Assembly (NCBI GenBank): GCA_903889245.1
Contig: CAISWQ010000123.1
Location: 3,470-67,469 of the forward strand
Origin: an uncultured Lentisphaerota bacterium
Lineage (GTDB): Bacteria; Verrucomicrobiota; Kiritimatiellia; CAIQIC01
Direction: 5' to 3'
Length of the DNA: 64,000 nucleotides
The notes under the pieces are model-generated. The model saw only the letters and a list, made by a program, of their open reading frames with translations. It was not told where the DNA came from and searched no databases. Both the position numbers and the translations under genes were made by a program. Every line of letters begins with the position of its first letter. The stretch's first letter is position 1. This document shows, in pieces, positions 5,960-63,637 of this stretch.

Positions 5960-6006
5960 TTCCAAGGTTTGGAAAACGCGAGGCGGTCGTTTTCCAAGGG
6001 TTGGAA
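5960..6006. repeat. TTCCAA-N3-TTGGAA palindrome doublet (spacing 32 bp)
   Basis: ttccaaggtttggaa at 5960 and ttccaagggttggaa at 5992. Confidence 0.9.
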
Positions 6007-6013
6007 ACTGCCG

Positions 6014-6571
6014 CTAGCTAGCCTTTTCCACCTGCCAATATTCCAGTTCCACGGGCGCGGTGCGGCCGAAAATCTGCACCGAGATCTTCAGCTTGCCGCG
6101 CGTCGGATCCACTTCCTCGATCACACCGGTGAAGTTGAGGAACGGGCCGTCGGTGATCTTCACCTGCTCGCCCGGCTCGAAGGTGACCTTGGGCTTGACC
6201 TTCTTCTCCTTGTCCTCGACCTGGTAGAGGATGTGGTCAATCTCGCTCTGCTTCAGCGGCACGGGCTTGTCGCCGCCGATGAAGCCGATGATGCCCTGCG
6301 TCTTCTGGTTCGTGAAGAAATTCCACGCGTTCTCCTCCAGCGTGCCGTCGGCCTTGTAGAGCGCGACGTGCACGAGCACATAGCCGGGGAAGAATTTCCG
6401 CGTCTGCGTGGTCCGCTTGCCCTGCTTGACTTCCGAGACCTTCTCGGTCGGGATCAGGACCTCGTCCACGATCTCCTTCATTTCTTCCAGCCGGATGCGC
6501 CGTTCAAGGCTTTCCTTGACCTTGTTCTCCTGGCCGGAGAGCGTATGCAAGACGTACCACTTCTTTTCCAT
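6014..6571 (-). CDS. nusG: Transcription termination/antitermination factor NusG
   Basis: [25 protein letters not shown] motif [23 protein letters not shown]. Confidence 0.98.
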
Positions 6572-6594
6572 GACTGCTCCAGAACTCGCCGGGA

Positions 6595-6798
6595 TTACCT
6601 AAGCACCAGTTTCAGGACACTGTTCAGGACGAAATCGCTGACGCCCACGAACGCCGAGAGAATGACGACGGACACGATGACGACCACCGTGGACTCCTTG
6701 AGTTCCCCCCACGTCGGCCACGAGCATTTCTTCAGCTCCTGGCGCACCTCGTCGAAGAACGTGCGCACCGCGCCCACCCATGCTCTGATCTTTTCCAT
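6595..6798 (-). CDS. secE: Preprotein translocase subunit SecE
   Basis: ELKKCSWPT followed by one TM helix; between tRNA-Trp and nusG. Confidence 0.93.
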   Translation of the reverse strand: MEKIRAWVGAVRTFFDEVRQELKKCSWPTWGELKESTVVVIVSVVILSAFVGVSDFVLNSVLKLVLR

Positions 6799-6825
6799 GA
6801 ATCGTTCTCTCCGGGGCAACGCGGG

Positions 6826-6901
6826 TGGCACGGCAGGAGGGACTTGAACCCGCAACCTGCGGTTTTGGAGACCGCCGCTCTGCCAATTGAGCTACTGCCG
6901 T
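6826..6901 (-). tRNA. tRNA-Trp (CCA)
   Basis: 76-nt cloverleaf, anticodon loop CTCCAAA, T-loop GTTCAAG, encoded CCA end. Confidence 0.96.
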
Positions 6902-6917
6902 ATCGTCCGTGAATCCT

Positions 6918-7070
6918 TTACTTGATTTCGCGGTGAACGGTGTGCTTGCGCTCCGCGGAGCAGAATTTCTTCAGCTCGACGCGTTCCGTCATCGTGCGCT
7001 TGTTTTTGGTCGTCGTGTAGTTGCGTCGCTTGCACTCCTGACACGCCAACGTAATGATTTCGCGGGGCAT
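6918..7070 (-). CDS. rpmG: 50S ribosomal protein L33
   Basis: Hand-translated [50 protein letters not shown]. Confidence 0.95.
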
Positions 7071-7094
7071 GATTCCACCGTTCTCCCGAAGGCC

Positions 7095-8303
<1,209 letters not shown>

Positions 8304-8368
8304 GTTTCTCTCCTGCCGACTCGGCTTGTTGGTTGTTCCTGTTTCCTAATTTTATTACCGACATCCAC

Positions 8369-8444
8369 TGGAGCCTACGAGCGGGATCGAACCGCTGACC
8401 TCGTCCTTACCAAGGACGTGCTCTACCAACTGAGCTACGTAGGC
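8369..8444 (-). tRNA. tRNA-Thr (GGT)
   Basis: 76-nt cloverleaf, anticodon loop TTGGTAA, CCA end; directly upstream of tuf. Confidence 0.96.
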
Positions 8445-8650
8445 CCGTCCAAAACTCCAGCGTCATCCGCTCATCTGCCCGGCCGCGCCACCCGGCGCAC
8501 CCGTTTAACGCAAAGCAAAAAAAGAGCGCAAACAATCCCCCGCGCTTTTTTCCCGTAACTGAAAAAAGAGCCGGCAGACTGCCTACTCCCTTCAAACTTA
8601 TGTCTGCGGCACGCTTACAAATGAGGCATCCACAACGTGCAGCGCGCGAC

Positions 8651-8695
8651 ACTCTAGCGGACTTTCCCTACCCGTCAACAACTTTTTTGAAAATT
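8651..8695 (-). promoter_or_regulatory. Putative sigma70 promoter for tRNA-Thr-tuf operon with A/T-rich UP element
   Basis: TTGACG-16nt-TAGAGT on minus strand, preceded by TTCAAAAAAGTTG. Confidence 0.6.
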
Positions 8696-8696
8696 T

Positions 8697-8745
8697 TTCC
8701 AAGCCCGCGGAAAACAGGCCTCTATCGTTTCTAAGGGGCTGGGAA
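8697..8745. repeat. Degenerate TTCCAA-N3-TTGGAA doublet
   Basis: ttccaagcccgcggaa at 8697 and ttctaaggggctgggaa at 8729 (32 bp apart). Confidence 0.55.
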
Positions 8746-8754
8746 CACGCGCCC

Positions 8755-10689
8755 TCACCGCGGCGGGGCGACAGGGCGGAAGTGGCGGTGAGTCAGGGTC
8801 GGCCAGGTCTGGCCGGTGTCATAAAGATTGCCCAGCCACAGCGGTTGCGGCAGCCAGACGCGATAGCAGTTGGTTACACTCCACGCGGTACCGGCCGAGG
8901 CGTAGTCGCACATCGTGATGGTCTGCGGCTGACCCTCGACGGTGGCGGGCACATCGAACGCCATCCACGCGCCGATGCGCGCGGCGGCCTGCGGATTCGG
9001 CTTGAGCCGGATGAACGGCGCGGCGCTGCGATCCAGCAACGCCTTCGCCTCGATGTTCACCTCCGGCGTCAGGCGGCTATCGAGCGCGAGCACGAGCGGG
9101 CCGCGCAGGATCGCCAGTTGGCCGTTGCCATCGGGCGCCTTGACGATGCGGCCGCGCAGGTCGGGTACGAGTTGGATGCGGTCGCCACCCTTCCACGTGC
9201 GCTGCAGCTTGGCATAACTGCCGGGCTGCACCGGCACCGCCTCGCCGTTGACCGTCAGGCTGGTGTTCGCGCTCCACGCCGGGATGCGCAGCGCGAGCGT
9301 GAAGGCTTCCGGCTTGGCGAGTTCGAGCACGATCTCGATCTTGTTCGCGATCGGATATTCCGTCTGCTGCTTGATCATCACCTTCTGCCCGCCGGGCGTG
9401 GCGACCTCCGCCGTTCCGGGAAAATACAAATTGACCACCGGGCCTTCGGCAGCGGTCATGACCGCCCACTGCGGCGCAAGCAGCAAGCCGCGCGGGCCGC
9501 TGACGACGCAGCAGCTCAACCCGACCTCGTCGTGCTGCATCAGGCTCGGCACGCGCTCGCCGTTGATGCCGCTGAAATAGGCCCACCAACGGCCGTCCGG
9601 CATCTGCGCGGCGAGCAGGCCGTTGTAGAGATTGCGCTCGAGCTCGTCGGCGAACCGCACGTCGCCCGTCAGCCGCAGCAACTGGTAGAGGAATTTCATC
9701 CACGTGGCGGTGACGCACGTTTCCATCGGCTGGAACACCGCGGCCGTCTGGTTCGTGTGTCCGCTGCACCAGTGCTCGCCGCGCGTACCGGGGCCGATGA
9801 TCGTCGTCTCCTGGCTCAACACGCCCTCGGCCAGCTTGATCGAGGCATTGAGATAGTTCTTCTCGCCGGTGAAGCGGTAGAGTTCGCACAGGCCCTCATA
9901 GCACGACATCATTTCGTAGGCCTTGTTCCAACGCATGTTCACCGGCGTCACACCCGCGAGACTGTCCTCGATCAGTCGCAGCCCGTTCGTGCATTGCGGC
10001 ACGTGATGCGAGGGCTGGCTCCACTGCCCGACAATGTACTGCGCGTAATCCAGGTACTTCTTCTCGCCCGTCCGCTGATAGAGCAGCACCGTCGGTTCGA
10101 GGATGGACGACGCCGCGAGGCCCTTGTGCGTGCCGATGTCGGCGATGTTCGTCTTGCCCGCGCCGGTCTGCGCGAGCAGCGTATCCATGTGCCGGCTCGC
10201 GGCGGCGAGCGTCGGCGCGTCGCCCGTACGGTCAACGTAGGCCAGCAGGCCGAGCAGCGCGTACTTGCGCCCCCACACGTCCCAACCCTTGAGCCGGTGC
10301 TCCGGCTGGCGCGTGCCGAGGTAGCCATCCGGCGCGGCGGTCGCCACCAGCGCGCGGGCGCCCTCGTCGAGCTTCGCGCGCGTCGCCGCCGTCGGCCGGT
10401 AGGCATCGGCCAGCGCGAGCGAGGTGTACCACTTGCCCCAGTACTCGCAACGCCAGTCCTTGAACCCCTCTTCCGCCTTGTCGCGGTAGGGCTTCACCAG
10501 CGGCTCGACCGGCTGCGCCAGCACGCGGTTCGCAATGCACTGATCAATCTTCGCGCCGAGCCGGCCCTCAATGCGGACCGCGCCCGCCGCCGGCGGCCGG
10601 AAGACATCCGGCGCCACCGGCTGCACCGACCCGCCCAGCACCGGCGCCGCCAACGCCACCACGGGGAGGATTTTGAGATTCATTTTCAT
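8755..10689 (-). CDS. GH127-like (DUF1680) beta-L-arabinofuranosidase family glycoside hydrolase, exported
   Basis: Signal peptide MKMNLKILPVVALAA; KAYEMMSCYEG, METCVTATW, LERNLYNGLL, CC pair, RIPAWS, LRGPLVLA. Confidence 0.85.
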   Translation of the reverse strand: MKMNLKILPVVALAAPVLGGSVQPVAPDVFRPPAAGAVRIEGRLGAKIDQCIANRVLAQPVEPLVKPYRDKAEEGFKDWRCEYWGKWYTSLALADAYRPTAATRAKLDEGARALVATAAPDGYLGTRQPEHRLKGWDVWGRKYALLGLLAYVDRTGDAPTLAAASRHMDTLLAQTGAGKTNIADIGTHKGLAASSILEPTVLLYQRTGEKKYLDYAQYIVGQWSQPSHHVPQCTNGLRLIEDSLAGVTPVNMRWNKAYEMMSCYEGLCELYRFTGEKNYLNASIKLAEGVLSQETTIIGPGTRGEHWCSGHTNQTAAVFQPMETCVTATWMKFLYQLLRLTGDVRFADELERNLYNGLLAAQMPDGRWWAYFSGINGERVPSLMQHDEVGLSCCVVSGPRGLLLAPQWAVMTAAEGPVVNLYFPGTAEVATPGGQKVMIKQQTEYPIANKIEIVLELAKPEAFTLALRIPAWSANTSLTVNGEAVPVQPGSYAKLQRTWKGGDRIQLVPDLRGRIVKAPDGNGQLAILRGPLVLALDSRLTPEVNIEAKALLDRSAAPFIRLKPNPQAAARIGAWMAFDVPATVEGQPQTITMCDYASAGTAWSVTNCYRVWLPQPLWLGNLYDTGQTWPTLTHRHFRPVAPPR

Positions 10690-10800: not shown

Positions 10801-10846
10801 TTCCAAGCCTTGGGAAAATTCGGCTGTTTTTTCCCAAGGCTTGGAA
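10801..10846. repeat. TTCCAA-N3-TTGGAA doublet (spacing 31 bp)
   Basis: ttccaagccttggga at 10801, tcccaaggcttggaa at 10832. Confidence 0.85.
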
Positions 10847-15117: not shown

Positions 15118-15360
15118 GGTACTCCTTCTCCTTTTTTGTGTTGGCACTGCACCTTCGGTGGGCGGCGGGACATAGCCCGGATCGCCCGGCTCCAAGATGT
15201 ACGCAGGCTCCCCCCAGCGCAGGTTGGGATCGTCCCACCGATACCCGGCGTCCCAATGGAGGGGTTTCATGAATAACTCACCTTTTCAGCCCCCCAAGGC
15301 TCGTTTGGGCCTGTTTTGACCATAAACAACGGCTCCGGATGATTTTTCGGTGTCCCCGGA

Positions 15361-15549
15361 CCGTTCGTAGGCGCCGCCGGACCCTCCGTAGGCGCCGCCC
15401 GCTGATCCGTAGGCACCGACGGACCATCCGCAGGCACCGCCGGATCGCCCGTCGGGGCCGACCGCACTTCCATCGGCACCGACGCACGAGCGGGGGATAC
15501 CGGTAAAGCGTTCCACCGCACCGCCGGAACGTCCGGGGGAACCGCAGGA
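15361..15549. repeat. Nine degenerate 21-bp tandem units (heptapeptide xGPAVPT on minus strand)
   Basis: ccgttcgtaggcgccgccgga / ccctccgtaggcgccgcccgc / tgatccgtaggcaccgacgga / ccatccgcaggcaccgccgga ... at an exact 21-bp period. Confidence 0.8.
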
Positions 15550-15573
15550 GAGAGCTAGGAGACGGCTACGGCT

Positions 15574-15632
15574 TGGGGCGCTGGGGCGCTGGGGCGCTGG
15601 GGCGCTGGGGCGCTGGGGCGCTGGGGCGCTGG
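15574..15632. repeat. Perfect 8-bp simple sequence repeat (TGGGGCGC)x7
   Basis: Seven identical units counted directly. Confidence 0.97.
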
Positions 15633-15710
15633 ATTGGGGTTCCTCATATCCTGCGGAACAAATAGTCCCGCGCTGTCCACCGCGTCAAGGACTTTTTCGG
15701 TCCGCAACCG

Positions 15711-15845
15711 AACCGCAGAATAGCGAACAAGGAATATCGAAGGCTGAAGGACGGAGGGAGAGCAGAGGTCAGAGGTCAGAAGTCAGAGGTCCGTTTTCTG
15801 CTTTCAGCTTTCAGCTTTCTGCTTTCTGCTTTTTGCTTTCAGCTT
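15711..15845. repeat. Cluster of heptamer tandem repeats (GAANNNC, CAGAGGT, GCTTTCW)
   Basis: gaatagc-gaacaag-gaatatc; cagaggt-cagaggt-cagaagt-cagaggt; gctttca/gctttct run. Confidence 0.85.
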
Positions 15846-15858
15846 TTCCAATCCCTGG

Positions 15859-15891
15859 AAAAAAAAGAAAGCCGGGCCACGGGGCCCGGCT
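15859..15891 (-). terminator. Rho-independent terminator of rpsA
   Basis: AGCCGGGCC-ccgt-GGCCCGGCT followed by TTCTTTTTTTT; U-tract overlaps a single TTCCAATCCCTGGAA unit at 15846. Confidence 0.85.
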
Positions 15892-15913: not shown

Positions 15914-17671
15914 TTATTCCTTCTTGTCGCCCTTTTCGCCGGGGCGCCACTCTTCCTGCTGCTGCATGGCGGCGCCGAGCGCGGCATCGAGCATCCCGCC
16001 CATATCCACGATGCTCTCGCCGGGGCGCAGCCCTTCGAGCATGGACTCATCCACCTTGAACTCTTCGTCGGGCAACTGCGCGGCCTTGATGGAAAGGCCG
16101 ATGCGGCGCTCGACAGGATCAATTTTGATGACGCGGGCTTCCACTTCCTGGCCAGGCTGGAGCACGTCCTTGACCTTCTGGACGCGGTCGTCGCTGATCT
16201 GGCTGATGTGGACGAGGCCATCGATGCCTTCCTCGATCTCGACGAAGGCGCCGAAGGAGGCGAGCTTGCTGACCTTGCCCTTGACGCGCTGGCCGACTTT
16301 GTACTTCGAGGCGATCGAACTCCACGGATCTTCCTGCGCCTGCTTGAGGCCGAGGCTGATCCGCTGCTGCGAGGGATCGACTTCGAGCACGACGGCCTCG
16401 ACGACGTCGCCCTTCTTGAGGACTTCGGTCGGATGGTTGACCTTGCGGGTCCACGACATGTCGGAGACGTGGATCATGCCGTCCATACCTTCTTCGATCT
16501 CGACGAAGGCGCCGTAGTTGGTGAAGTTGCGGACCTTGCCGGTGATGCGCGTGCCGATCGGGTACTTGTTCTGGACCTCGTCCCACGGGTTGGATTCGGT
16601 CTGGCGGATGCCGAGCGAAATCTTCTGCTCGTCGCGGTTGACGCCGAGGATGACGGCATCCACAGCCTGGCCGACGGTGAGCACATCCGACGCCTTCGCG
16701 ACGCGCTTGGTCCACGAGAGTTCGGAGACGTGCACGAGACCCTCGACGCCTTCCTCGATCTGGATGAACGCGCCGTAGGGCATGACGTTGGTGACGGTGC
16801 CGTGGACGCGGCGGCCGACCTGGTAGCGGGCCTCGATATCGTCCCACGGGTTACGGGTCTTCTGCTTGAGGCCGAGGGAAATCCGCTCCTTCTCGAGGTT
16901 GACGTCGAGGATGAGCACTTCGAGCTCCTGGCCGACCTTGAGCATCTCGGAGGGATGGTTGACGCGGCCCCAGCTCATGTCGGTGACGTGCAGCAGGCCA
17001 TCCATACCGTTGAGGTCCACGAACGCGCCGAAGTCGGTGAGGTTTTTGACGAAGCCCTTGCGGATCTGGCCGATCTGGATATCGCGCAGCAGGCCCTTCT
17101 TCTGTTCCTTGCGGCGGTCTTCGAGCATCTCGCGGCGCGAGACGACGAGGTTGCGGCGCTCCTTGTTGATCTTGAGAATCTTGAACTCGAGCGGCTTGTT
17201 GAGGTAGGCGTCCGGGTCCTTGACCGGCGTAACGTCGAGCTGCGAGCCGGGGAGGAACGCGTCCACGCCGACATCCACGAGCATGCCGCCCTTGACGCGG
17301 CCGACGATCGTGCCTTCGATGACGCTGCCCTCGGTGTAATTTTCCAGGACGCGGTCCCAGTTGCGCTGCTGCTCCGCGCGCTGCTTGCTGACGACGATCT
17401 GGCCGTCATCGTTTTCGAGCTGCTCGATGAGGACCTCGATGGCATCGCCGGCCTTGACGGCGGCGAGGTCTTTGAACTCCTCGCCGGGGATGATGCCCTC
17501 GGACTTGTAGCCGATATCCACGACGACTTCGTTGGAGCGGACTTCGAGGACTTTGCCGCCGACGATGGAGTTTTCCTTGAAGGACTTCAGGGTTTCCTCG
17601 TAGCGGGCGGCCATGGCGGCCTTTTCTTCACTGATGGGAGCGGCGGGGGCCGCGGCTTTTTTCTTGCTCAT
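15914..17671 (-). CDS. rpsA: 30S ribosomal protein S1
   Basis: Six S1 repeats (DFGAFVDL, GLLHVTDMSW, YGAFVEIEEG). Confidence 0.97.
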   Translation of the reverse strand: MSKKKAAAPAAPISEEKAAMAARYEETLKSFKENSIVGGKVLEVRSNEVVVDIGYKSEGIIPGEEFKDLAAVKAGDAIEVLIEQLENDDGQIVVSKQRAEQQRNWDRVLENYTEGSVIEGTIVGRVKGGMLVDVGVDAFLPGSQLDVTPVKDPDAYLNKPLEFKILKINKERRNLVVSRREMLEDRRKEQKKGLLRDIQIGQIRKGFVKNLTDFGAFVDLNGMDGLLHVTDMSWGRVNHPSEMLKVGQELEVLILDVNLEKERISLGLKQKTRNPWDDIEARYQVGRRVHGTVTNVMPYGAFIQIEEGVEGLVHVSELSWTKRVAKASDVLTVGQAVDAVILGVNRDEQKISLGIRQTESNPWDEVQNKYPIGTRITGKVRNFTNYGAFVEIEEGMDGMIHVSDMSWTRKVNHPTEVLKKGDVVEAVVLEVDPSQQRISLGLKQAQEDPWSSIASKYKVGQRVKGKVSKLASFGAFVEIEEGIDGLVHISQISDDRVQKVKDVLQPGQEVEARVIKIDPVERRIGLSIKAAQLPDEEFKVDESMLEGLRPGESIVDMGGMLDAALGAAMQQQEEWRPGEKGDKKE

Positions 17672-17750
17672 GTTTTTCCGATCACGGCACGGCGACTCGT
17701 TGCGGGCCATCCGCCGGGTCAGAGACCCGGCCTACCTCATCAGGTTTATT

Positions 17751-17922
17751 TTCCAGGGCTTGGAAACCGCAGACGCTGGTTTTTCCAAGCCTTGGAAATT
17801 TTCGCCCAATTTTTTCCGGGGCCTGGAAATTTCCACAGGGATTTTTCCAAGGCTTGGGAAAGGAGGGTGCGCTTTGTTCCAAGGTTTGGAAAAAAGGTTG
17901 GTTGAATTTCCAACCCTTGGAA
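17751..17922. repeat. Six-unit TTCCAA-N3-TTGGAA array
   Basis: Units start at 17751, 17783, 17814, 17845, 17877, 17908. Confidence 0.95.
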
Positions 17923-18074: not shown

Positions 18075-18191
18075 ATCCCGGCAACGTGCTACTCTCCCAC
18101 GGCCTACACCGCAGTACCATCGCCGCTGTGGGGCTTAACTTCCGTGTTCGGAAAGGGAACGGGTGTGGCCCCCACGCTATGATCACCGAGA
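18075..18191 (-). rRNA. rrf: 5S rRNA
   Basis: Reverse complement has CCCGTTCCCTTTCCGAACACGGAAGTTAAG and GATGGTACTG...GGGAGAGTAG. Confidence 0.95.
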
Positions 18192-18249
18192 AAAAATGAA
18201 ATTGCATAGAGAAGGACATTCTTCACACAGCATCGTGTGATGTTAAGTT

Positions 18250-21203
<2,954 letters not shown>

Positions 21204-21266
21204 AAAATTTGGTCACACATATCTCGAACATTCGGTGAAGAATGTTTCTACCCTTCTCTATGCAAT

Positions 21267-21278
21267 TGTCAAAGAACT
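21267..21278 (-). promoter_or_regulatory. BoxA-like antitermination site in ITS
   Basis: AGTTCTTTGACA upstream of 23S. Confidence 0.6.
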
Positions 21279-21359
21279 GACCCGCGATGCGGGAAATTGA
21301 ATATTGCTTGCGGCGCGACCATCGCGCAGCAACCGACATTCAATTGATCAACGGCGGCT

Positions 21360-21436
21360 TGGTGGGCGTGCCTGGAATCGAACCAGGGACCTCGTCCTTA
21401 TCAGGGACGCGCTCTAACCAGCTGAGCTACACGCCC
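21360..21436 (-). tRNA. tRNA-Ile (GAT)
   Basis: 77-nt cloverleaf, anticodon loop CTGATAA, CCA end. Confidence 0.96.
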
Positions 21437-21517
21437 AACGGTATTGCCAATTTTTGATTTGCGATTTCCGATTTTGGAAATTCGGCAATCAGCAATCGGC
21501 CTTCGGCAATCTCTGAT

Positions 21518-21593
21518 TGGTGGAGGCAACCGGGCTTGAACCGGTGACCCCGAGCTTGCAAAGCTCGTGCTCTCCCAACTGAGCTATGCCCCC
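21518..21593 (-). tRNA. tRNA-Ala (TGC)
   Basis: 76-nt cloverleaf, anticodon loop TTTGCAA, CCA end. Confidence 0.96.
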
Positions 21594-21797
21594 AACAATG
21601 TGACGGCATGTCCACGATTCCGAACCCGGCTTTGCGCCGCCGTTCAGAACAACCCACGAACTCGCTTCGAGACCGAAGCGGTGCGATTTCCACTAACCTG
21701 ACAGTAGCCCTTGACTCATCTTGCGATGAGTTGCGTTCCGCTTGCGCGAAACGATTGTCTCTCCAATCTGAAATCTGATTAGGATTTCAAACGGATG

Positions 21798-23375
<1,578 letters not shown>

Positions 23376-27651: not shown

Positions 27652-27663
27652 AGGGAGCGGCTG

Positions 27664-29379
27664 ATGTTTATCACGGGGCGAGTTTTCCAAGGCTTGGAAA
27701 ATGGCACCCCAGTTTTTTCCAAGGCTTGGAAATTTTTCGGCGCTTTTTCCCAAGGCTCGGAAAATTCCGCCGGAGTTTTTCCAGGGCCTGGCTGGCGCAG
27801 AGCGCAGCACAGGAATTTTCCCGCGGGATTTTCCAAGGCTGGGAAAAACCACCCGTTCCACTTTCCAATCCTTGGAAAAATTTTCTTGCTCGCCGCGCTG
27901 ACGGCAGTGGCCGGCGCGCGGGAGCTGCCGCTGACCATCCTCTACACGACCGATCTCCACGGACATCTGGCGGGTGTGACCTCGAGGAAGGAGCCGCGCG
28001 GCACCGGCGGCCTGCTGCGCTGCGCGACGCTCATCGAGCAGGTCCGCGCGCAGGAGAAAAACGTCCTGCTGCTCGACGCGGGCGATACGCTGCAAGGCTC
28101 GGCCGAAAGCTGGCTTACCGGCGGCCGCTGCCTGACGCGCGCCATGGAACTGCTCCGCTATGACGCGTGGTGCCTCGGTAACCACGACTTCGACTGGGGC
28201 ACGGCCGCGCTGACCAACCTGCTCGCCAAGTCCAAGCTCGATGTGCTCGCGGCGAACATCGCGCCGCCGCTGCCCGGCGTGCAGTCGTGGCTACTCAAGG
28301 AAACCCGCGGCGTGCGCGTCGCGCTCATCGGCCTGACGAATCCGTTCATCCCGAAGTGGACGCGGCCGGAGCTGCTCGGCGACTACCGCTTCGACCGGCC
28401 GGTGGAAACGCTCGCGCGCCTGCTGCCGGCGGTACGCGCGGAGAAGCCCGACGTGATCGCCTTGCTGATCCACGAAGGCTACCGTCCCGCCGGCGACGAT
28501 GGCGCGAACGAAATCCGCGCCCTCGCCAAGCGCTTCCCGGAACTCGATGTGATCCTCGGCGGTCATCAGCACGAAGCGCTGCTCGCGCCGACCGGCCTGG
28601 GCGTGCTCTATCTCGAAGCCGGCTGCCACGGGCAGGCCGTCGGGCGCGTGGACCTGCTCGTGGACATTGACCGGCACAAGGTGGTGCGCCGCTCCGCCAG
28701 CCTGCTCATCGCGAGCAACGGCGTGCCGGAGTCGGCGGAGCTGCGGCGGCACTTCATCCGCGACTTGTCGCGCGCCGAGAAGCATCTGGCCGAGCCGGTC
28801 GGCGCGGCGGCCGCGGCCATCGCGGCGACCGGCCCGGTGCGCGGGCAGTCGCCGCTGCAGCAGTTGCTCTGTGCCGCCATCGCAGAAAAAGTGCAGGCCG
28901 AGATCGTGCTGCACGGCACGCTCGCGGAGGCCGGCCTCGCCGCCGGGCCGCTGACCATGCGCGACATCTGGCGCATCGTGCCCTATGAGAACCGCATCGG
29001 CGTGGCGTATCTGACGTTGCAGGAAATCCGCGCGATACTGGAGGAGAATGCGAACGTGCCCGGCGATCACTTCCTCGGCGTCTGGGGGCTGGCCTACGAT
29101 TTGCGCACCGCCGCCGCGCCCGGCCAGCGCGTGCATAATCTGCGGCTTGCCGACGGGACCAAGGCGCACGGCAAGAAACGCTATGCGGTCGCCTTCAACA
29201 GCCACACGCTCGCCTCCGGCGGCGGGCGGTTCCCCACCCTGCCCCAACTGATCGCCGAGCCGCGCGCGCGCTTCGCGCTGACAACCAACGACACCCGCGC
29301 CGCCGTCGCCGCTTACGTCCGTCAGCACTCGCCGCTCTACCCAGCCCATCCGTCGCTGGTGAAAATCAGCAGTGAATGA
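27664..29379 (+). CDS. Bifunctional metallophosphatase / 5'-nucleotidase; signal peptide interrupted by repeat array
   Basis: TTDLHG, DAGD, GNHDFD, GGHQH; 5'-nucleotidase C domain (PYEN); SD AGGGAG before ATG. Confidence 0.88.
   Translation: MFITGRVFQGLENGTPVFSKAWKFFGAFSQGSENSAGVFPGPGWRRAQHRNFPAGFSKAGKNHPFHFPILGKIFLLAALTAVAGARELPLTILYTTDLHGHLAGVTSRKEPRGTGGLLRCATLIEQVRAQEKNVLLLDAGDTLQGSAESWLTGGRCLTRAMELLRYDAWCLGNHDFDWGTAALTNLLAKSKLDVLAANIAPPLPGVQSWLLKETRGVRVALIGLTNPFIPKWTRPELLGDYRFDRPVETLARLLPAVRAEKPDVIALLIHEGYRPAGDDGANEIRALAKRFPELDVILGGHQHEALLAPTGLGVLYLEAGCHGQAVGRVDLLVDIDRHKVVRRSASLLIASNGVPESAELRRHFIRDLSRAEKHLAEPVGAAAAAIAATGPVRGQSPLQQLLCAAIAEKVQAEIVLHGTLAEAGLAAGPLTMRDIWRIVPYENRIGVAYLTLQEIRAILEENANVPGDHFLGVWGLAYDLRTAAAPGQRVHNLRLADGTKAHGKKRYAVAFNSHTLASGGGRFPTLPQLIAEPRARFALTTNDTRAAVAAYVRQHSPLYPAHPSLVKISSE
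27685..27877. repeat. Six-unit TTCCAA-N3-TTGGAA array inside CDS 5' end
   Basis: Units start at 27685, 27717, 27748, 27779, 27831, 27863. Confidence 0.92.
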
Positions 29380-32570: not shown

Positions 32571-32741
32571 TTCCAAGCCTTGGAAAAAGCCCCCTGACCT
32601 TTTCCGGGGCTTGGAAAAATCTTCACGAAATTTTCCAAGCCCTGGAAATAAAAGCGCGAAAAGTTCCCAGCCTTGGAAAAAATTCCGCGAAACTTTCCAA
32701 TGTCTGGAAAAACCGGCGCCCCGCGTTTCCAATCCTTGGAA
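32571..32741. repeat. Six-unit TTCCAA-N3-TTGGAA array between convergent genes
   Basis: Units start at 32571, 32602, 32633, 32664, 32695, 32727. Confidence 0.95.
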
Positions 32742-35605: not shown

Positions 35606-37143
35606 GGTTTGGCTCCCTTGGCTTTCTTGTTTTTCCTGCCGCCAGCAACGGGTCGCACGGCACGCTCGTTATCGGCGGGCGAGAACGACCGCGGTGCCAC
35701 ATCGTTCGCCAGCAGTTCCGCGACAAGCGGATCGCGCATCTCCTCGCCCCACTTCGCGAGCAATGCGCGGTGGCGCAACAGCACCTCGCGGCTGGCGGGA
35801 TCGGCGGCGAGATCCTGCGTCTCGCCGGGATCGTTCTGCAAATCCACCAGCGACTCGCGCCGCAGACCGCGGCCATAGACGCAATATTTAAAGCGGTCAG
35901 TCCGCACCATGCGGCCGGCCATCTCCGGCTTGAGTCCCTCCACCATGCCGGTCTGTACCATGTGGTTTTGCACGACGACAAACTCGCGCCAGTCGCCAAC
36001 GCTCTGGCCGAGCGCGAGCGGCAGCAGGCTGCGGCCGGGCAGCGTACGCGGCGCGGCGATGCCCGCGGCGTCGAGCAGCGTTGGCAGGATATCCAGACCG
36101 GTGTTGATCAACTTGTCGCTGATCGCCGCCGGCGTCCTGCCGGGCCAGCGGAGGATCAGCGGCACGCGGGCCGACTCCTCGTAGAAGACGGTCTTCTGGT
36201 TGAAACCGTGCGCGCCGGCGCAATCGCCGTGGTCGGCGGTGAACACGATCAGCGTGTTCTCCGCGAGCCCGGTCTTCTTCAGCGCGGCGAGCAGCTTGCC
36301 GATCTCGGCATCCACCAACTCGGTCATGCGGTAATAGCCCCAGCGGTGCCTGCGCCAGTCATCGGGTGTGAACTGGCCGACGGGGAACGGCCCGTCATCC
36401 ACCTGATAGGCGCGGCGGATCAGCGTCATGCCATCGGGCTCGTTCACGGGCGGCGCGAGGTTCGCCGGCGGCGGCGGCAATTTTTCCGGCGCGGGCGGCG
36501 GGCCGATCTCGCCGCAGTTGAGCGTCTGCTGGCGGCCCGCGAGCCGGCGCGCCCACTCGCAGATGTTGTGCGGGTTGAGGTAGCTGGCGACGAGCAGGAA
36601 CGGCTTGCTATGCGGCTGCGCGAGGAATTTTTCCGCGCCGGCGGTGACGCCCATGTCGTGGCCGCCAGGACTCTTCTCCGAGAACATCTCGAAGCCGTGC
36701 GCCTTGGGGTCGCGCGGGTTGAAGTTCAGATGCCACTTGCCCGCATAGGCCGTCTCGTAGCCAGTGTTGCGAAAGTAGGTGCCCAGGCACGGGAACTTCT
36801 GCGGGTCGAGCTGGCCCTTCACATCATTGCTGGTGACGCCCGTCTCGTGCGGATACCGGCCGGTGAAGACCGAGTTGCGCCACGGCATGCACAGCGGGTT
36901 CGAGCTGTAGGCGCGCGTGCAGAGCAGACCGCCGGCGGCGAGGCCATCCATCGCCGGGGTGTTGATCCACTGCCTGCCCATCCGGCAGCTCATCACCTCG
37001 GCGAACTGCTGGTCGGTGATGATGAACAGGATGTTCGGGCGTTTTTCCAAACCTTGGAAAACCGGGGCCGCGCTTTTTCCAAGGCTTGGAAAACCGAGCG
37101 CGCCCAGCCCGGCCAACTTCAGAAATTCACGGCGCTGCAACAT
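35602..37143 (-). CDS. Sulfatase (Tat-exported) with palindrome doublet in signal region
   Basis: QRREFLK, PNILFIITDQQ, CMPWR, GKWHL, ADHG. Confidence 0.9.
   Translation of the reverse strand: MLQRREFLKLAGLGALGFPSLGKSAAPVFQGLEKRPNILFIITDQQFAEVMSCRMGRQWINTPAMDGLAAGGLLCTRAYSSNPLCMPWRNSVFTGRYPHETGVTSNDVKGQLDPQKFPCLGTYFRNTGYETAYAGKWHLNFNPRDPKAHGFEMFSEKSPGGHDMGVTAGAEKFLAQPHSKPFLLVASYLNPHNICEWARRLAGRQQTLNCGEIGPPPAPEKLPPPPANLAPPVNEPDGMTLIRRAYQVDDGPFPVGQFTPDDWRRHRWGYYRMTELVDAEIGKLLAALKKTGLAENTLIVFTADHGDCAGAHGFNQKTVFYEESARVPLILRWPGRTPAAISDKLINTGLDILPTLLDAAGIAAPRTLPGRSLLPLALGQSVGDWREFVVVQNHMVQTGMVEGLKPEMAGRMVRTDRFKYCVYGRGLRRESLVDLQNDPGETQDLAADPASREVLLRHRALLAKWGEEMRDPLVAELLANDVAPRSFSPADNERAVRPVAGGRKNKKAKGAKP
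37045..37091. repeat. TTCCAA-N3-TTGGAA doublet within sulfatase CDS
   Basis: Units at 37045 and 37077; encode FPSLGK..FQGLEK. Confidence 0.93.
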
Positions 37144-41419: not shown

Positions 41420-41497
41420 TTCCAAGGCCCGGAAAATCTTCCGTGAAATTTTCCAATGCCTGGAAAAACCGCCGGTTCCCATTTCCAATCCTTGGAA
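41420..41497. repeat. Three-unit TTCCAA-N3-TTGGAA array
   Basis: Units at 41420, 41451, 41483. Confidence 0.92.
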
Positions 41498-55073: not shown

Positions 55074-55322
55074 TCATGTATCCATGTTTGCACCCTGACC
55101 AGTTAAAGGCAAGCCAGCCCTTTTCCCCGTCAATAGCGGGAGCATCACGGGCTCGCCGGCGCGCGCGGTCAGCATCAAGGCCGCCAGCACGCCGGCTTTT
55201 CCAAGGCTTGGAAAAATTGCGGCGATTTTTTCCAAGGCTTGGAAAATTTTCCGTGAAATTTTCCAATGTCTGGAAAAACCAGCCGTTCCCGTTTCCAATG
55301 CTTGGAAAAGTCTCCGCATCAT
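55074..55322 (-). pseudogene. Probable truncated 5' end of an exported-protein gene with array inside signal peptide
   Basis: ATG overlaps GH106 stop (ATGA); MMRRL-[array]-AGVLAALMLTARA-GEPV then runs into low-GC DNA. Confidence 0.5.
55199..55307. repeat. Four-unit TTCCAA-N3-TTGGAA array
   Basis: Units at 55199, 55230, 55261, 55293. Confidence 0.95.
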
Positions 55323-58628: not shown

Positions 58629-58674
58629 TTCCAAGCCTTGGAAAATCCAGCGCCGGTTTTTCCGAGGCTTGGAA
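58629..58674. repeat. TTCCAA-N3-TTGGAA doublet just upstream of GH106 RBS
   Basis: Units at 58629 and 58660. Confidence 0.9.
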
Positions 58675-60168: not shown

Positions 60169-60579
60169 TCAGGGAAGGCTGGCCAGCAGTTCGTCGGGGC
60201 CAAGCACCTTGAGGTTGGCCAGGCGGAAGTCATGCTGGTTGCGCGTAACGATGACTTCGGCGCCCACCAGCCGGCCCGCCTGCTCCAACACCGCATCCTC
60301 GAAATCGGCCACCCGGCTTTTGAGCGCTTCCTGCAATACGGCCCGGTTGACCGGTGCGATCTCGAACAACTCCAGCAATTTTCGCAGGGCCTGATGGGCT
60401 TGCGGGCGGGGCATGGCCTGCGTCAGCAGATAGTCAATGGTGGTGATGGTGGTGGCGCACAGGAAACCCTGCAATCGGGACTGTTCGATCAGGCCCAGCA
60501 CCTCGGCTGAGGCCGCAGCAAAGGGTTGCCGATCCAGCAACACATCAAGGACCACATTGGTATCAACCAGAACTTTCAC
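60169..60579 (-). CDS. PIN-domain (VapC-like) toxin
   Basis: VLVDTNVVLD, DFEDA, IVTRN..DF. Confidence 0.9.
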   Translation of the reverse strand: MKVLVDTNVVLDVLLDRQPFAAASAEVLGLIEQSRLQGFLCATTITTIDYLLTQAMPRPQAHQALRKLLELFEIAPVNRAVLQEALKSRVADFEDAVLEQAGRLVGAEVIVTRNQHDFRLANLKVLGPDELLASLP

Positions 60580-60815
60580 GAATACTTGGCCCGCAGATGT
60601 TTTTTATAGTCAGCCTCGGAGACACCGCGCCCCTTCAAAACGCCGACCAGCGAGGCGGTGAGGGGTGGCAGCGCAGGCGCTTTAGGACGAACCACGGTCA
60701 AGCTGTCGAAAAACTCCCCGACAATTTGCGAGACCGATTTCCCCCGCCGGCTGGCCTCCACCTTGGCCGAGCGGACCAAGGCCTCGTCCATGCGCAGGGT
60801 GAGCTTCGTATTCAT
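60576..60815 (-). CDS. RHH-type antitoxin (DUF6364-like)
   Basis: MNTKLTLRMDEALV...GKSVSQIV, LRAKYS; stop overlaps PIN start. Confidence 0.82.
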   Translation of the reverse strand: MNTKLTLRMDEALVRSAKVEASRRGKSVSQIVGEFFDSLTVVRPKAPALPPLTASLVGVLKGRGVSEADYKKHLRAKYS

Positions 60816-60844
60816 GACGTACTCTCTAGCCTGACTTGTACGTC
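60816..60844. promoter_or_regulatory. Putative TA operator inverted repeat
   Basis: GACGTAC-N15-GTACGTC abutting antitoxin start. Confidence 0.5.
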
Positions 60845-60954
60845 TTGTCAATATCCACCTGGCGCAACGTTCACCTATCGCGCCACGTAAGAGTCAGACA
60901 AGACCTCTATTCTTGACGCCATATCCAGCGGGCGTCAAAGCCGGGGATGGCCCT

Positions 60955-62514
60955 TCATTTCCACTCGTCGGTGCGGAAGGTTTGCGCGGGGAGGCCGTCC
61001 TTGTTGAAGAGGTTCGCCCACGGCGCGTTGCTGCTCCACGCGTAGCGGACCGCGACCGGCTGCGGCACGGCGGCGCAGGAGACGACGACGCTGTCGCCCT
61101 CGATCTGCGCCTCGGCCCAGCGGAATTTCTTGTCGGCACCCGCGACCATGAAGCCCTGCAGCTTGTCGCTATGCCGCGCGGCGAGCCCCTGCCCGACGTG
61201 CGTGAAGCTGATGCGGATCTTGCCGCCCTCGACCTTGTGCGCGGCGTAGAGCGGGCCGCTATATTCGACCGGCTGCCCGTAGACGAAGCCAAGCGCCACG
61301 CGGACGGCGCGCGCGCCGTAGCCATTCTTGTTCGTGGGATGCGTGCCGCTGCCGAGGTCGGTGCTGGTGACCATCGCGGTCTTGGGATGTTGCTGGATCT
61401 TGAGGTGCAGTTCGCGGTAGAGGCCATCAATGTTGCCCGGCTCGCGCGGGAGTTGCGGACTGAACTTGCTCGCGTTCTTCGTCACAGGATCGCCGAGGTC
61501 CCACGCGGTGCCGCCGCCGCTGTGCTTCTGGACGTAGAGGAACGGGAAGTCCTGCCCCCACTCCTTGCGCCAGCCAGCAATGAGCGCACCCATGAGGTTG
61601 AACTGATCCACGCCGGTGATTGCCGTGCCGCTCTCGCCCTGATCCCAGAGCACGCCGCGGATCGCATAGGGCGCATAGGGCTGGACGTGCGCCTGATAGA
61701 GGTTGCCGATGCGGCCGGCGGACTCGCCCGGCTTCGTGGGCTTGGTGGGACCGCGCGGCCCGCGCTTTTTCTCCTGCTTCGCTTTCTCGGCGACCGGTTT
61801 CCACGCGGCGAGGTCCTTTTCATATTTCTGCTGCGCCGCGGCCAGGTCATAGGTCTTGGCGAACTCCGCCGCCTGCGCCTGGCAGGCGGCGTCGCTGCGC
61901 AGCATCTCCTCGGTCAGCCAGTAGCCCGAGGGCGTGCCGCCGACCGCGCCGACCATGATGCCGACGGGCACGTCGAGCTTCTGCTGGAGCTGGTAGCCGA
62001 ACGCGAACAGCAGCGCGGAGAACTGCTTGATGTTCGCGGGTGTCGCCTCCTCCCAGCCGGCGCGGCCCTTGTGCAGCAGGCGCAGCTTGGGATAGGTGGC
62101 CTCGGCGGCCCTGGCCAGCGCGGGATCGTTGTTCGTGTAGCTCGGCACGTGCATGTCCATGTTCGACTGGCCGGAGCCGAGCCAGACCTCGCCGACGAGC
62201 ACGTCGGAAATGGTCAATGGTTTATGGCTGATGGAGGAGGTGATGGTCATCGTGCGTGGCTCTGCCGAGACCGGCAACGGGTCCAATTTCACCATCCATT
62301 TACCCTTGGCATCCGCCGTGGCCGTTTTGGTCTGGCCGGCAAAGGCAACGGTCACCTGCTCGCCGGGCGCGGCGGTGCCCCAGATCGGCGCGGCCGCATC
62401 GCGCTGCAATACCATGTGATCGGAAATTGCCGGCGGCAGCTTCACCTCGGCGCGCGCCGCGAACGCGCAGGCCACCAAGGCGGACAGGCAGAGAACGAGC
62501 GTGGATGGTTTCAT
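60955..62514 (-). CDS. Sialate O-acetylesterase (SASA) family protein
   Basis: SDHMVLQR, GEVWLGSGQSNM, WDQGES, HPTNK, VRYAW, FRTD. Confidence 0.9.
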   Translation of the reverse strand: MKPSTLVLCLSALVACAFAARAEVKLPPAISDHMVLQRDAAAPIWGTAAPGEQVTVAFAGQTKTATADAKGKWMVKLDPLPVSAEPRTMTITSSISHKPLTISDVLVGEVWLGSGQSNMDMHVPSYTNNDPALARAAEATYPKLRLLHKGRAGWEEATPANIKQFSALLFAFGYQLQQKLDVPVGIMVGAVGGTPSGYWLTEEMLRSDAACQAQAAEFAKTYDLAAAQQKYEKDLAAWKPVAEKAKQEKKRGPRGPTKPTKPGESAGRIGNLYQAHVQPYAPYAIRGVLWDQGESGTAITGVDQFNLMGALIAGWRKEWGQDFPFLYVQKHSGGGTAWDLGDPVTKNASKFSPQLPREPGNIDGLYRELHLKIQQHPKTAMVTSTDLGSGTHPTNKNGYGARAVRVALGFVYGQPVEYSGPLYAAHKVEGGKIRISFTHVGQGLAARHSDKLQGFMVAGADKKFRWAEAQIEGDSVVVSCAAVPQPVAVRYAWSSNAPWANLFNKDGLPAQTFRTDEWK

Positions 62515-62543
62515 GACAGGACTCCTTCGGTTTTAGCAGACGT

Positions 62544-63524
62544 TCAGCGTTGCGTCGGCGCTTTGAGCTTCTCGATCAGGAACGCGCCGGTGGTCGCGTG
62601 CTTCACATCGGTCGCGCCGGGATAGAAGACCTCGCAGGGCACGCCGCATTCCTTGCAATGCTCCTGCAACTTCACGCCGAAGTTGGCGGTATGCGTCGGG
62701 TCCTTCTGGTCCTGCCCGAGCGCCGGCGGCGCATTAAAGGTGCAGTAGATCGGCGGATCATCGCTGCTGACGAGCGCGTACGGCGAATACTCGGCGATCC
62801 ACGGCAGAATCTTGTCGCGCCCGTCGAGAAACTCCTGAAAATTCTTGAAGCCAAACGCGTGGCCGCCGTACTTGCTGTTCGGCGTCCACTCCTTCATCTG
62901 CTTGGGGTCGAGCGTCGTCTGCGGGCCGGAGACCGCGGCACACCACAGACGCGTGGACTCGCGCGCGATGGGATCATCGCTCTTCGGATCGGCCATATCG
63001 GGATGGAACGCGAGCCACAGGCTGGAGCACGCGCCCGCCGAGCCACCGCTCGCGCCGATGCGTTCCTTGTCAATGTTCCACTCCTGCGCCTTGCTGCGGA
63101 CGAATTGCAGCGCGCGCGCCGCGTCGGTCAGCGGCCCCTTGACCGGCGGCACGACCTTGTCGGCGGTCGCCTCTGGAATGAAACGATATTCAATCGAGAC
63201 CACCGAGATGCCGTTCTTGAGCATCTCCGGCAACAGGCCTGCCACGCTGGAACGATTGCCGCCCATCCAACCGCCGCCGTGGATGAAGAACAGCAGCGGC
63301 GTCGGCTTGTCGGACTCCGCCTTCCAGAACGTCATGACCTGTTTCGGGTGTTTGCCGTAGGCCACGTCGTCCAGTGTCGCCTTCGGCAGCGGCGGCGCGG
63401 GCTTGGCGGCTTTCGCCGGTTTGGCGGCGGGCTTCTTGGCCGGCGCCTTCTCCGCCGCCAGCGATGGCAGCGATAGCGCGAGCGTTCCAACCAACATCCA
63501 ACGACCGAGTCTCTGCAACTTCAT
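62544..63524 (-). CDS. Exported alpha/beta hydrolase (HSL/BD-FAE-like esterase)
   Basis: HGGGW, GGSAG, DPTH. Confidence 0.87.
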   Translation of the reverse strand: MKLQRLGRWMLVGTLALSLPSLAAEKAPAKKPAAKPAKAAKPAPPLPKATLDDVAYGKHPKQVMTFWKAESDKPTPLLFFIHGGGWMGGNRSSVAGLLPEMLKNGISVVSIEYRFIPEATADKVVPPVKGPLTDAARALQFVRSKAQEWNIDKERIGASGGSAGACSSLWLAFHPDMADPKSDDPIARESTRLWCAAVSGPQTTLDPKQMKEWTPNSKYGGHAFGFKNFQEFLDGRDKILPWIAEYSPYALVSSDDPPIYCTFNAPPALGQDQKDPTHTANFGVKLQEHCKECGVPCEVFYPGATDVKHATTGAFLIEKLKAPTQR

Positions 63525-63591
63525 GATGTTCTCCTTTGGTAAGACATTCCCTTCCCAACGGCCCTATCAACGGCCCGGCCCGGCGGATATT

Positions 63592-63637
63592 TTCCAAGCC
63601 TTGGAAAATAGTGCGGCGTTTTTTCCAAGGCTTGGAA
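63592..63637. repeat. TTCCAA-N3-TTGGAA doublet
   Basis: Units at 63592 and 63623. Confidence 0.92.

Follow-up and report, generated by a model that had tools for sequence, protein, structure and literature searches.

Helically phased palindrome arrays of the Kiritimatiellia: candidate sites of a dimeric DNA-binding protein in a repeat family that also behaves as self-propagating

A stretch of 64,000 nucleotides from an uncultured Lentisphaerota bacterium of the class Kiritimatiellia (contig C123, positions 3470-67469; this whole stretch is referred to as the window) contains many copies of a short palindrome, TTCCAA-N3-TTGGAA, which are lined up in arrays with a regular spacing of 31 or 32 bp. 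In the source genome (G000; 5.26 Mb, 125 contigs, 64.7% G+C) the arrays are found by the hundred, mostly between genes, and related arrays occur across the class. Their geometry and sequence conservation suggest that the units are sites of a dimeric, sequence-specific protein that binds double-stranded DNA cooperatively on one face of the helix and forms oligomers on arrays of mostly two to four units, a reading to which we assign a probability of about 0.5. As interspersed bacterial repeats the units form a family that is unusual for its helical phasing, its lineage-specific dialects and its class-wide spread, and that is apparently undescribed. The sequencing runs containing the stretch are DNA runs of one lake-water study only. 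Other genomes, loci and taxa are designated by working handles (G001, L070, g31 and the like) where they have to be told apart.

In the window, the significance of the pattern was judged by comparing match counts to those in 100 shuffles. The sequence TTCCAANNNTTGGAA is present 19 times exactly and in none of the shuffles; with up to two mismatches there are 35 matches compared to a shuffle mean of 1.13, and with up to three mismatches 53 compared to 12.06 expected. The start-to-start intervals within the arrays are without exception 31 bp (14 of 23) or 32 bp (9 of 23). An earlier note on this DNA, made from the letters alone, had listed 12 sites. Eleven of them are recovered at up to two mismatches, and the remaining one, at 8697, holds only a degenerate copy that is one base too long (TTCCAAGCCCGCGGAA). 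The lone 52-bp step described in the earlier note is real, leading from 27779 to 27831 after a degenerate unit. Reading the arrays also bore out that the spacers usually start with an A-tract and end with a T-tract and that no cognate gene lies in the window.

Throughout the source genome, TTCCAANNNTTGGAA was found 1,345 times exactly and 2,820 times with up to two mismatches. Chaining of neighbouring matches resulted in 2,830 units in 1,041 arrays, which cover 71,453 bp or 1.36% of the assembly. Pairs are the most frequent form (415 arrays), followed by arrays of three (225) and four units (203), single units (124) and arrays of five (60), six (10), seven (3) and eight units (1). The earlier observation is borne out and had been put too low. 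Moreover, 57 of the 250 contig ends have an array within 300 bp, compared to about 13% expected, showing that the assembly breaks at arrays, and the array counts for this genome are therefore lower bounds. Similarly, many repeat matches in other metagenome-assembled genomes (MAGs) are located less than 200 bp from contig starts, and the copy numbers given for MAGs are underestimates.

A sequence logo of 1,594 unit pairs from the source genome shows a conserved core of 19 bp, TTTTCCAAGSCTTGGAAAA, in which the CC and GG positions are nearly invariant. In this genus the core is a perfect palindrome, TTTTCCAAG-S-CTTGGAAAA, followed by a spacer of 12-13 bp with A's at its beginning and T's at its end; because of these A and T runs at the ends of the spacers as first delimited, the true core is 19 bp. 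The 12-13 bases between the cores carry very little information. Almost all spacers are distinct (1,568 of 1,594), and adjacent spacers are hardly more similar to each other than random pairs (42.4% versus 40.7% identity), in agreement with the earlier suggestion that the spacing is kept while the spacer sequence drifts.

The palindromic core might be conserved as DNA sequence or as a hairpin. For the paired positions 5/9 there are 335 units with G-T, 320 with A-C and 29 with G-C, the last of which would be expected about 45 times under independence, with the reservation that the detection limit of three mismatches is slightly biased against double changes. Single changes compatible with a G.U pair are equally frequent on both strands relative to transcription (187 versus 184 in ++ regions, 189 versus 176 in -- regions). 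There is neither compensatory covariation nor a strand-specific G.U bias, and what is conserved is the sequence and not the hairpin.

The spacing of the units follows the helical repeat of DNA. Neighbour distances in the source genome are 31 bp in 915 and 32 bp in 582 cases, whereas 30 bp (20) and 33 bp (5) are rare, resulting in a mean of 31.39 bp or 3 x 10.46 bp. The informative cases are 66 further distances from one unit to the next, in the range of 16-200 bp, none of which is near a multiple of 31.5 bp. They gather at 20-22, 41-42, 52-53, 83-85, 104 and 114-116 bp, and 44 of them fall within 1.5 bp of a multiple of 10.5 bp, compared to 38% expected (Rayleigh R = 0.435, p ~4e-6, best period 10.3-10.7 bp). 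Moreover, arrays combining 22-bp and 31-bp steps are found in the genomes G016 and G024. The phase tracks the helix, beyond a mere 31-bp repeat unit. The 10.5-bp periodicity on which the earlier note had staked its proposal is thus upheld genome-wide by both the 31/32-bp and the off-unit distances. Furthermore, the range of allowed spacings looks selected, since slippage by one base in the A/T runs should yield 30 and 33 bp equally.

The arrays are also polar. A unit with a TCC centre, read outward, is located at array ends 294 times, compared to 28 times for its complement; it is present at one end only in 292 arrays and at both ends in one. Among the 203 four-unit arrays, 110 carry the TCC-centre unit at one end, 93 at none and no array at both. 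When the arrays are oriented by this end, the third interval is nearly always 31 bp (132 versus 6) and the last interval mostly 32 bp (181 versus 97), a T-type centre is favoured in the penultimate unit and a faint spacer consensus, ..TTCCGCGAAA.., becomes visible. For the spacers of the source genome, orientation and consensus bring little gain over a column-shuffled control. Array polarity does not correlate with GC skew or the majority gene strand and is weakly linked to neighbouring gene starts (109 versus 69).

For the position of the arrays relative to genes, the source genome was annotated with our own simple codon-bias gene caller (3,710 genes, 87% coding). Arrays are present in 804 of 3,022 intergenic regions (27%) and in all orientation classes, i.e., in 282 of 1,163 and 262 of 1,068 tandem regions, in 117 of 411 divergent and in 143 of 380 convergent ones, while 217 of the 1,041 arrays have no clean intergenic assignment. 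At least 88% of the units (2,496 of 2,830) are intergenic, and the 334 units within called coding sequences (CDS) are mostly located in open reading frames (ORFs) that run spuriously through arrays. The 226 array units that lie deep in called CDS are spread nearly evenly over the three frames (93, 65 and 68), as expected for spurious ORFs. Arrays tend to start shortly after stop codons (median distance 25.5 bp; within 10 bp in 233 of 852 cases), and their distance to start codons is larger (median 71 bp). In the window they separate genes of every kind, e.g., nusG from rplK, a ribosomal RNA (rRNA) operon from rpsA and a ClpX-like gene from a 5'-nucleotidase gene, and they also lie between sulfatase and beside glycoside hydrolase genes. 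In viral contigs, no match to a two-unit pattern was found.

The family is widespread in the class. In a sample of 201 class genomes, the exact 15-bp pattern is present in 114 genomes, with at least 20 copies in 65 of them (hand count) and up to 856 copies outside the source genome, whereas a reversed control pattern gave 0-2 copies. In a separate sample covering the other classes of the phylum, every genome has 0-4 copies. The exact 19-mer is found in MAGs labelled Lentisphaerae, Verrucomicrobia, Kiritimatiellaeota or Kiritimatiellales, which together with a gene content rich in sulfatases points to the Kiritimatiellia as the class concerned. Within the single genus g31 the copy number ranges from 2 to 746, and in 200 kb sampled from its array-less member G055 no comparable palindrome family was detected.

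Several lineages use dialects of the motif. The genome G008 carries TTTTACGT-N3-ACGTAAAA in 31-bp steps (15 exact copies in 188 kb), and G014 and G022 carry TTTTCCATAGCGTGGAAAA and TTTTCCATTGTGTGGAAAA, respectively, also at 31 bp and both with a conserved polar spacer, (A)TCGCGAAAAAG. A TTCCAAT-S-ATTGGAA core is found in G016, G013, G045 and G067. A pattern that defines only the architecture (T4-N11-A4, 12-13 bases, T4-N11-A4) was matched in each of the 12 genomes sampled from family f4, and it was also positive in two genomes of g38, with 31 matches compared to one for the control. The core sequence varies between lineages while the architecture is constant, and the common denominator of the dialects is T4-CCA-N5-TGG-A4 in steps of two or three helical turns.

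Judging from these patterns in the DNA, each core would be bound by a dimeric protein that recognises its sequence in double-stranded DNA. Dimers on adjacent cores would touch along one face of the helix, so that about two to four dimers oligomerise over roughly 50-125 bp. The geometry would be that of Lrp-type sites, but the protein would be a different one that co-evolves with its site. Occupied and phased sites would persist, allowing the family to spread and to be kept like a repeat element. As to the role of the bound arrays, our best guess is that they might mark or insulate gene boundaries and contribute to nucleoid organisation.

The likeness to Lrp sites is considerable. Lrp sites are described as inverted repeats of about 13-17 bp that are clustered at distances of two or three helical turns, about 100 bp being wrapped by three to four dimers (PMC2995911). 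This geometry matches the 15-19-bp cores, the 22- and 31/32-bp steps and the arrays of two to four units. In contrast to Lrp sites with their AT-rich centre, the units have a G/C-rich centre, and near-consensus arrays of them number about a thousand, where Lrp has a few degenerate ones. Lrp/AsnC itself was rejected as binder: the genomes G045 and G067 (95-96% complete, with 150 and 119 copies) have neither a PF01037 match nor a match to the Lrp protein of the source genome. The arrays are not Lrp sites, because these two genomes of family f10 have strict 31-bp arrays without Lrp. The single Lrp gene of the source genome adjoins an aminotransferase gene, and the Lrp family is also present in lineages without the TTCCAA pattern. 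Two further candidates were excluded. Exactly one ParB is encoded in each of five g31 genomes, array-less G055 included, which leaves no additional ParB/Noc-like paralogue, and DnaA is the only protein with a DnaA-C domain in the source genome.

Next to these site-like features, the units show the behaviour of a repeat family with considerable turnover. For this, 400 kb of the congener G001 were compared with the source genome (median protein identity 79%). Of 100 syntenic adjacent gene pairs, seven have an array in both genomes, four only in G001, three only in the source genome and 86 in neither (Fisher p 2e-6); the unit number is the same in two of the seven shared arrays. The site orthologous to window positions 27652-27885 carries arrays in all four genus members, with two, three and two units in the three congeners and with spacers that cannot be aligned. 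At six shared sites, the outer 12 core positions are identical in 133 of 153 comparisons (87%), spacer positions in 66 of 113 (58%) and other intergenic positions in 156 of 209 (75%).

Gain of whole blocks can be seen at single junctions. In the source genome a three-unit array fills an 80-bp gap at a place where the G001 genes overlap by 4 bp, and the nusG/rplK junction, which harbours the array at 5960-6006 in the window, measures only about 18-25 bp in five other class genomes and has no array there. Target-site duplications were not detected, direct repeats flanking 917 arrays being at chance level. In G016 and G014, adjacent spacers can be identical or recur every three units, and tandem duplication is thereby shown.

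Units have also entered coding DNA. Of 41 single units located deep in CDS of the source genome, 31 read TTC CAA NNN TTG GAA and encode F-Q-x-L-E, while about 2.5 near-matches would be expected genome-wide by chance. In the AddA-like helicase of genus g31, five motif-bearing congeners encode a conserved FQTL[E/D] site by TTC CAA ACN YTG GAA or a sequence one mismatch off; motif-less G055 uses TTT CAA ACG CTG GAC. The helicase of G130 has two units 31 bp apart without a change in length relative to G166, and in that of G200 two units enclose an insertion of 35 residues and a variable loop holds a three-unit array. Units in frame and arrays of two to three units in variable loops of this helicase were observed at several loci (L118-L121 and L113:7020-10031), and the in-frame palindromic elements of Rickettsia are similar to them. 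Of 122 sites sampled in G166, whose genome is complete, 68 fall within ORFs, with 28, 22 and 18 in the three frames. The cases in the helicase and in other CDS show that units arise by substitution as well as by insertion or expansion. The family therefore also behaves as self-propagating, with block insertion, tandem duplication, copy-number swings, core switching and entry into coding DNA. The earlier note had posed a protein site and a mobile repeat as alternatives; the features of a site are found, and so is the behaviour of a propagating repeat, and the family is probably both at once.

Several observations weigh against a phased binding platform. No binder was found among the candidates checked, and the distribution of the arrays is tracked by none of Lrp, ParB, DnaA-C paralogues and Y1 proteins; of the dimeric, cooperative binder that the earlier note proposed, the phased geometry stands but a fitting protein does not. 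The constant spacing is in part a trivial outcome of tandem copying of a 31-bp unit, and in G014, G016 and G022 the spacers are conserved and adjacent ones can even be identical. The spread from 2 to 746 copies within one genus together with the array-less G055 is easier to reconcile with a dispensable or selfish element than with a host system that is essential. The copies of G166 are mostly single, and many are found within genes in each of the three frames, for which a boundary function offers no explanation. Finally, the comparison of orthologous arrays covers six sites only and aligners tend to pair repeats with repeats, and the gene calls rest on a crude home-made caller.

Taken further, binding on phased arrays may be part of a class-wide chromosome-marking system, in which a sequence-specific dimeric protein would polymerise on the arrays found at roughly one in four gene boundaries. 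Protein and sites would co-evolve into dialects, and the sites would spread on their own through insertion, tandem growth and substitution, reaching even into genes. We put this forward as a tentative suggestion, and with the same caution such a system might be described as a self-spreading binding-site array that is neither a transposon nor an ordinary regulon.

Among the alternatives, a selfish hairpin repeat similar to repetitive extragenic palindromes (REPs) or bacterial interspersed mosaic elements (BIMEs) survives best, and we nevertheless consider it unlikely. The core, a 7-bp stem with a 5-nt loop, would be recognised in its single-stranded form and copied by a transposase of the HUH tyrosine type, i.e., a REP-associated tyrosine transposase (RAYT) or a relative, and the phasing would be a by-product. 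REPs resemble the units as short palindromic extragenic repeats that occur in hundreds to thousands of copies, are often clustered near gene ends and vary in copy number between species, and with a 19-bp core and 2,830 copies the units correspond to the high-copy extragenic palindromes of about 20-40 bp by which REPs are recognised. In line with such an element, the arrays are extragenic, high in copy number and often placed just past stop codons, blocks were inserted without target-site duplications as is the case for HUH elements, copy numbers vary strongly between species with a lineage-specific core, and conserved spacers with visible tandem duplication are found in G014, G016 and G022. 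Moreover, the source genome encodes RAYT-type proteins, one ORF scoring 89.2 bits against NCBIfam NF047646 (cut-off 80) and another 74.8 bits. However, both genes are flanked by GC-rich REP families of their own and not by TTCCAA units. The off-unit distances also obey the 10.5-bp period, intervals of 30 and 33 bp are nearly absent, and compensatory covariation is lacking.

The sequence of the units also differs from that of REPs. REP elements carry a terminal GTAG/CGTC tag (PMC3733652). The TTCCAA units lack a GTAG/CGTC tag, GTAG or CTAC being present within -12..+27 of only 84 of 2,830 units and the logo ending in runs of T and A, and no RAYT gene is flanked by them; their stems are AT-rich, and they are arranged head to tail and strictly phased with variable spacers. 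BIMEs are mosaics of alternating palindromic units joined by conserved linker motifs, whereas no linker families were seen among the spacers of the source genome. The claim of the earlier note that the palindrome is not a simple REP hairpin has held up, since the hairpin tests failed, with neither covariation nor G.U strand bias, and the RAYT genes serve other repeats.

The two RAYT genes belong to classical REP-RAYT systems of the source genome, located on contigs C113 (L070:1121-1904) and C91 (L069:1326-2004), in each of which the RAYT-type gene lies between inverted copies of its own repeat. The GTAG-tagged family has 67 copies at up to two and 91 at up to four mismatches, the other REP family 23 and 36. 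Copies of these REPs are frequently located within 150 bp of a TTCCAA array (32 of 67 and 15 of 23), i.e., both kinds of repeats share intergenic regions.

A relative of the RAYTs might be considered instead. Multi-copy "long" Y1 proteins of 330-350 residues are encoded in four array-rich g31 congeners, and this class is not seen among the six hits of array-less G055. However, no array abuts any of six long Y1 loci in five other genomes. In the source genome, which is richest in arrays, the long form was not found, and G007, at 97% completeness, lacks a PF01797 match in spite of 66 exact copies. Over 41 relatives PF01797 does not track the arrays, and genus g5, which lacks the TTCCAA motif, has many PF01797 matches. 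A RAYT/Y1 transposase was therefore rejected as the cognate enzyme, since the RAYT genes serve other repeats and Y1 does not track the arrays. The long Y1 proteins, which are encoded in many genomes of the class (e.g., L167:2201-3217 and L169:2242-3240), consist of an N-terminal HUH/Y1 domain followed by about 200 C-terminal residues without a sequence match in Pfam or the PDB. A MITE (miniature transposable element with inverted repeats) or another derivative of a DDE transposon was rejected as well, with no target-site duplications and no multi-copy gene flanked by arrays found in the source genome. Likewise, an autonomous array-flanked element was not found there, and this genome has no gene family with more than three members at 60% identity or above, though MAGs tend to lose multi-copy genes.

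Quite improbable is a motif propagated by drive, comparable to the uptake signal sequences (USS) of Pasteurellaceae, the DNA uptake sequences (DUS) of Neisseriaceae or the highly iterated palindrome HIP1 of cyanobacteria, which would be gained by substitution through a bias in uptake, repair or methylation and would form arrays where these are tolerated. Uptake sequences likewise occur in thousands of copies, in dialects, in tolerated frames within genes and with an apparent origin by substitution. DUS also have dialects, as have the units described here. The motif is found in genes in tolerated frames (F-Q-x-L-E, the FQTL[E/D] codons of the helicase and the G130 pair without a change in length), its density is one unit per 1.9 kb, target-site duplications are missing and the ComEC channel is encoded in 198 of 201 class genomes. 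However, ComEC is equally present in motif-less lineages, and its presence discriminates nothing because it is near-universal in the class. In G054, a genome of another family in two contigs, the ComEC match (C1:1409676-1410500) contains three in-frame TAG codons and may be a pseudogene or a case of TAG reassignment.

Further features of the arrays do not fit a drive-propagated motif. At least 88% of the units of the source genome are intergenic and in phased arrays, and to our knowledge no known uptake signal or HIP forms intergenic phased arrays; nor do we know of uptake sequences that are palindromes in phased tandem arrays. Insertions of blocks of two to three units at formerly tight junctions are not substitution events, and the CDS frames in G166 are nearly even (28, 22 and 18). 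HIP1 is described as a hyper-abundant palindrome over a large clade that occurs in and between genes, with exceptional lineages and an unsettled function (PMC5861425, PMC4390886, PMC13756078). The units share clade-wide hyper-abundance, coding and intergenic copies and exceptional lineages with low counts or variants. In contrast, HIP1 is an 8-mer without fixed-spacing arrays, whereas the units have a 19-bp core, are mostly intergenic in the source genome and form phased, polar arrays. The HIP-like abundance in both coding and non-coding DNA is seen in G166, with 68 of 122 sampled sites in ORFs, in contrast to the at least 88% intergenic units of the source genome.

A role at the level of RNA, with the units acting as terminators, stabilisers of 3' ends or protein-sponge hairpins, is very unlikely. 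Many arrays are located just past stop codons and they are most frequent between convergent genes (143 of 380), the six-unit array at 17751 follows the rRNA operon, and array RNA folds far better than shuffles (z = -7). The last point is uninformative, because a strong fold is automatic for repeated palindromes. Against such a role, there is neither a G.U strand asymmetry relative to transcription nor compensatory change, arrays are as common in divergent promoter regions as in tandem ones, and the AT-rich stems are followed by A's and not U's. Terminator-like hits in 20 kb number 13 compared to 15.5 expected, only one of them touching an array, and the seven Rfam matches in the window are all rRNA or tRNA, none on an array.

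Least probable of all, the units might be low-affinity or variant pairs of DnaA boxes that titrate the initiator along the chromosome. The DnaA-box consensus is TTWTNCACA, which the half-site TTTTCCACA of some dialects (G022, G024) fits, and a five-unit array of the source genome begins 11 bp past the dnaN stop. However, its own half-site TTTTCCAAG (2,146 copies) has no CACA end, and dialects such as TTTTACGT bear no resemblance to a DnaA box. Canonical boxes number only 109 in the genome, with the usual clustering near dnaA, and DnaA, the product of the only DnaA-C domain gene, is too conserved to switch specificity within a genus. The dnaA-dnaN region itself (C100:82508-85851) contains four DnaA-box-like 9-mers in 16 kb compared to 0.33 expected.

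CRISPR arrays, finally, also have unique spacers of one fixed length between copies of a partly palindromic repeat, and polarity with a variant repeat at the end is likewise shared. They are confined to one or a few loci and draw their spacers from foreign DNA. Here, in contrast, the repeat has 19 bp and not 24-48 bp, the spacers have 12-13 bp and keep A- and T-runs, as well as a family consensus in some genomes, and the loci, with one to eight units each, number 1,041.

Literature on the exact motif, on repeats of Kiritimatiellia and two REP surveys was searched, supplements and most subscription journals not being covered, and no description of the repeat was found. The family does not fit Rfam entries, REPs, MITEs, Lrp sites or CRISPR either, and the word undescribed in the earlier note apparently still applies. 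If a dedicated protein reads the arrays, they would represent a new kind of bacterial chromatin or boundary element that is defined by sequence and can easily be mapped in hundreds of genomes. The family would moreover offer a natural experiment on how a DNA-binding protein and thousands of its sites shift specificity together. The family bears on the old question of what purpose interspersed bacterial repeats serve and how they spread without a transposase. In practice, the arrays fragment MAG assemblies and mislead gene callers, since genes are over-extended where ORFs cross arrays, and the clade-specific sequence signature may be used for binning.

The arrays of the window are distributed as follows. 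The two units at 5960-6006 (interval 32 bp) are situated where nusG (6014-6571, minus strand) and rplK (5508-5933, minus strand) leave a gap of 80 bp. The degenerate single copy at 8697-8712, which is unmatched at up to three mismatches, is a doubtful member. Two units at 10801-10846 (interval 31 bp) are located between a GH127-like gene and a xylose-isomerase-like TIM-barrel gene; an additional match at 9721 (two mismatches) within a GH127 gene is probably due to chance. A single unit with a TCC centre is present at 15846-15860, adjoining heptamer tandem repeats, and a six-unit array at 17751-17922 (intervals 32, 31, 31, 32 and 31 bp) separates the 3' end of the rRNA operon (5S rRNA at 18076-18190, minus strand) from the start of the ribosomal protein S1 gene (rpsA, 15914-17710, minus strand).

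Between the ClpX-like AAA gene and the 5'-nucleotidase gene, five clear units and the degenerate one at 27779 form the array at 27685-27877, with steps of 32, 31, 31, 52 and 32 bp and a last unit with a TCC centre. The ORF at 27664-29379 runs through this array: its ATG (27664) shares the frame of the 5'-nucleotidase gene, whose start is more likely at 27886. A polar array of six units is located at 32571-32741 (intervals 31, 31, 31, 31 and 32 bp; centres GCC, GGC, GCC, GCC, TGT and TCC) and begins 15 bp past a stop codon. It is followed by two units between two sulfatase genes at 37045-37091 (interval 32 bp) and by a polar array of three units between convergent genes at 41420-41497 (intervals 31 and 32 bp; centres GGC, TGC and TCC). 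Four units at 55199-55307 (intervals 31, 31 and 32 bp) lie between a major facilitator superfamily (MFS) transporter gene and a GH106 rhamnosidase gene, and two-unit arrays with an interval of 31 bp are found at 58629-58674 and 63592-63637.

Among the other features of the window, a complete rRNA operon (5S, 23S, 16S) occupies 18076-23375 on the minus strand, with two tRNA genes in the 16S-23S spacer (21363-21436 and 21521-21593), which accounts for the stretch of low G+C content and the gap in gene calls from 18 to 24 kb. Two more tRNA genes are located at 6829-6901 and 8372-8444. Beside the unit at 15846 lies an unrelated patch of tandem repeats (15356-15846), which comprises periods of 21/42/63 bp at 15356-15484, 7.4 copies of TGGGGCGC at 15574-15632 and the heptamers CAGAGGT (four copies) and TTTCTGC (seven copies) at 15763-15846.

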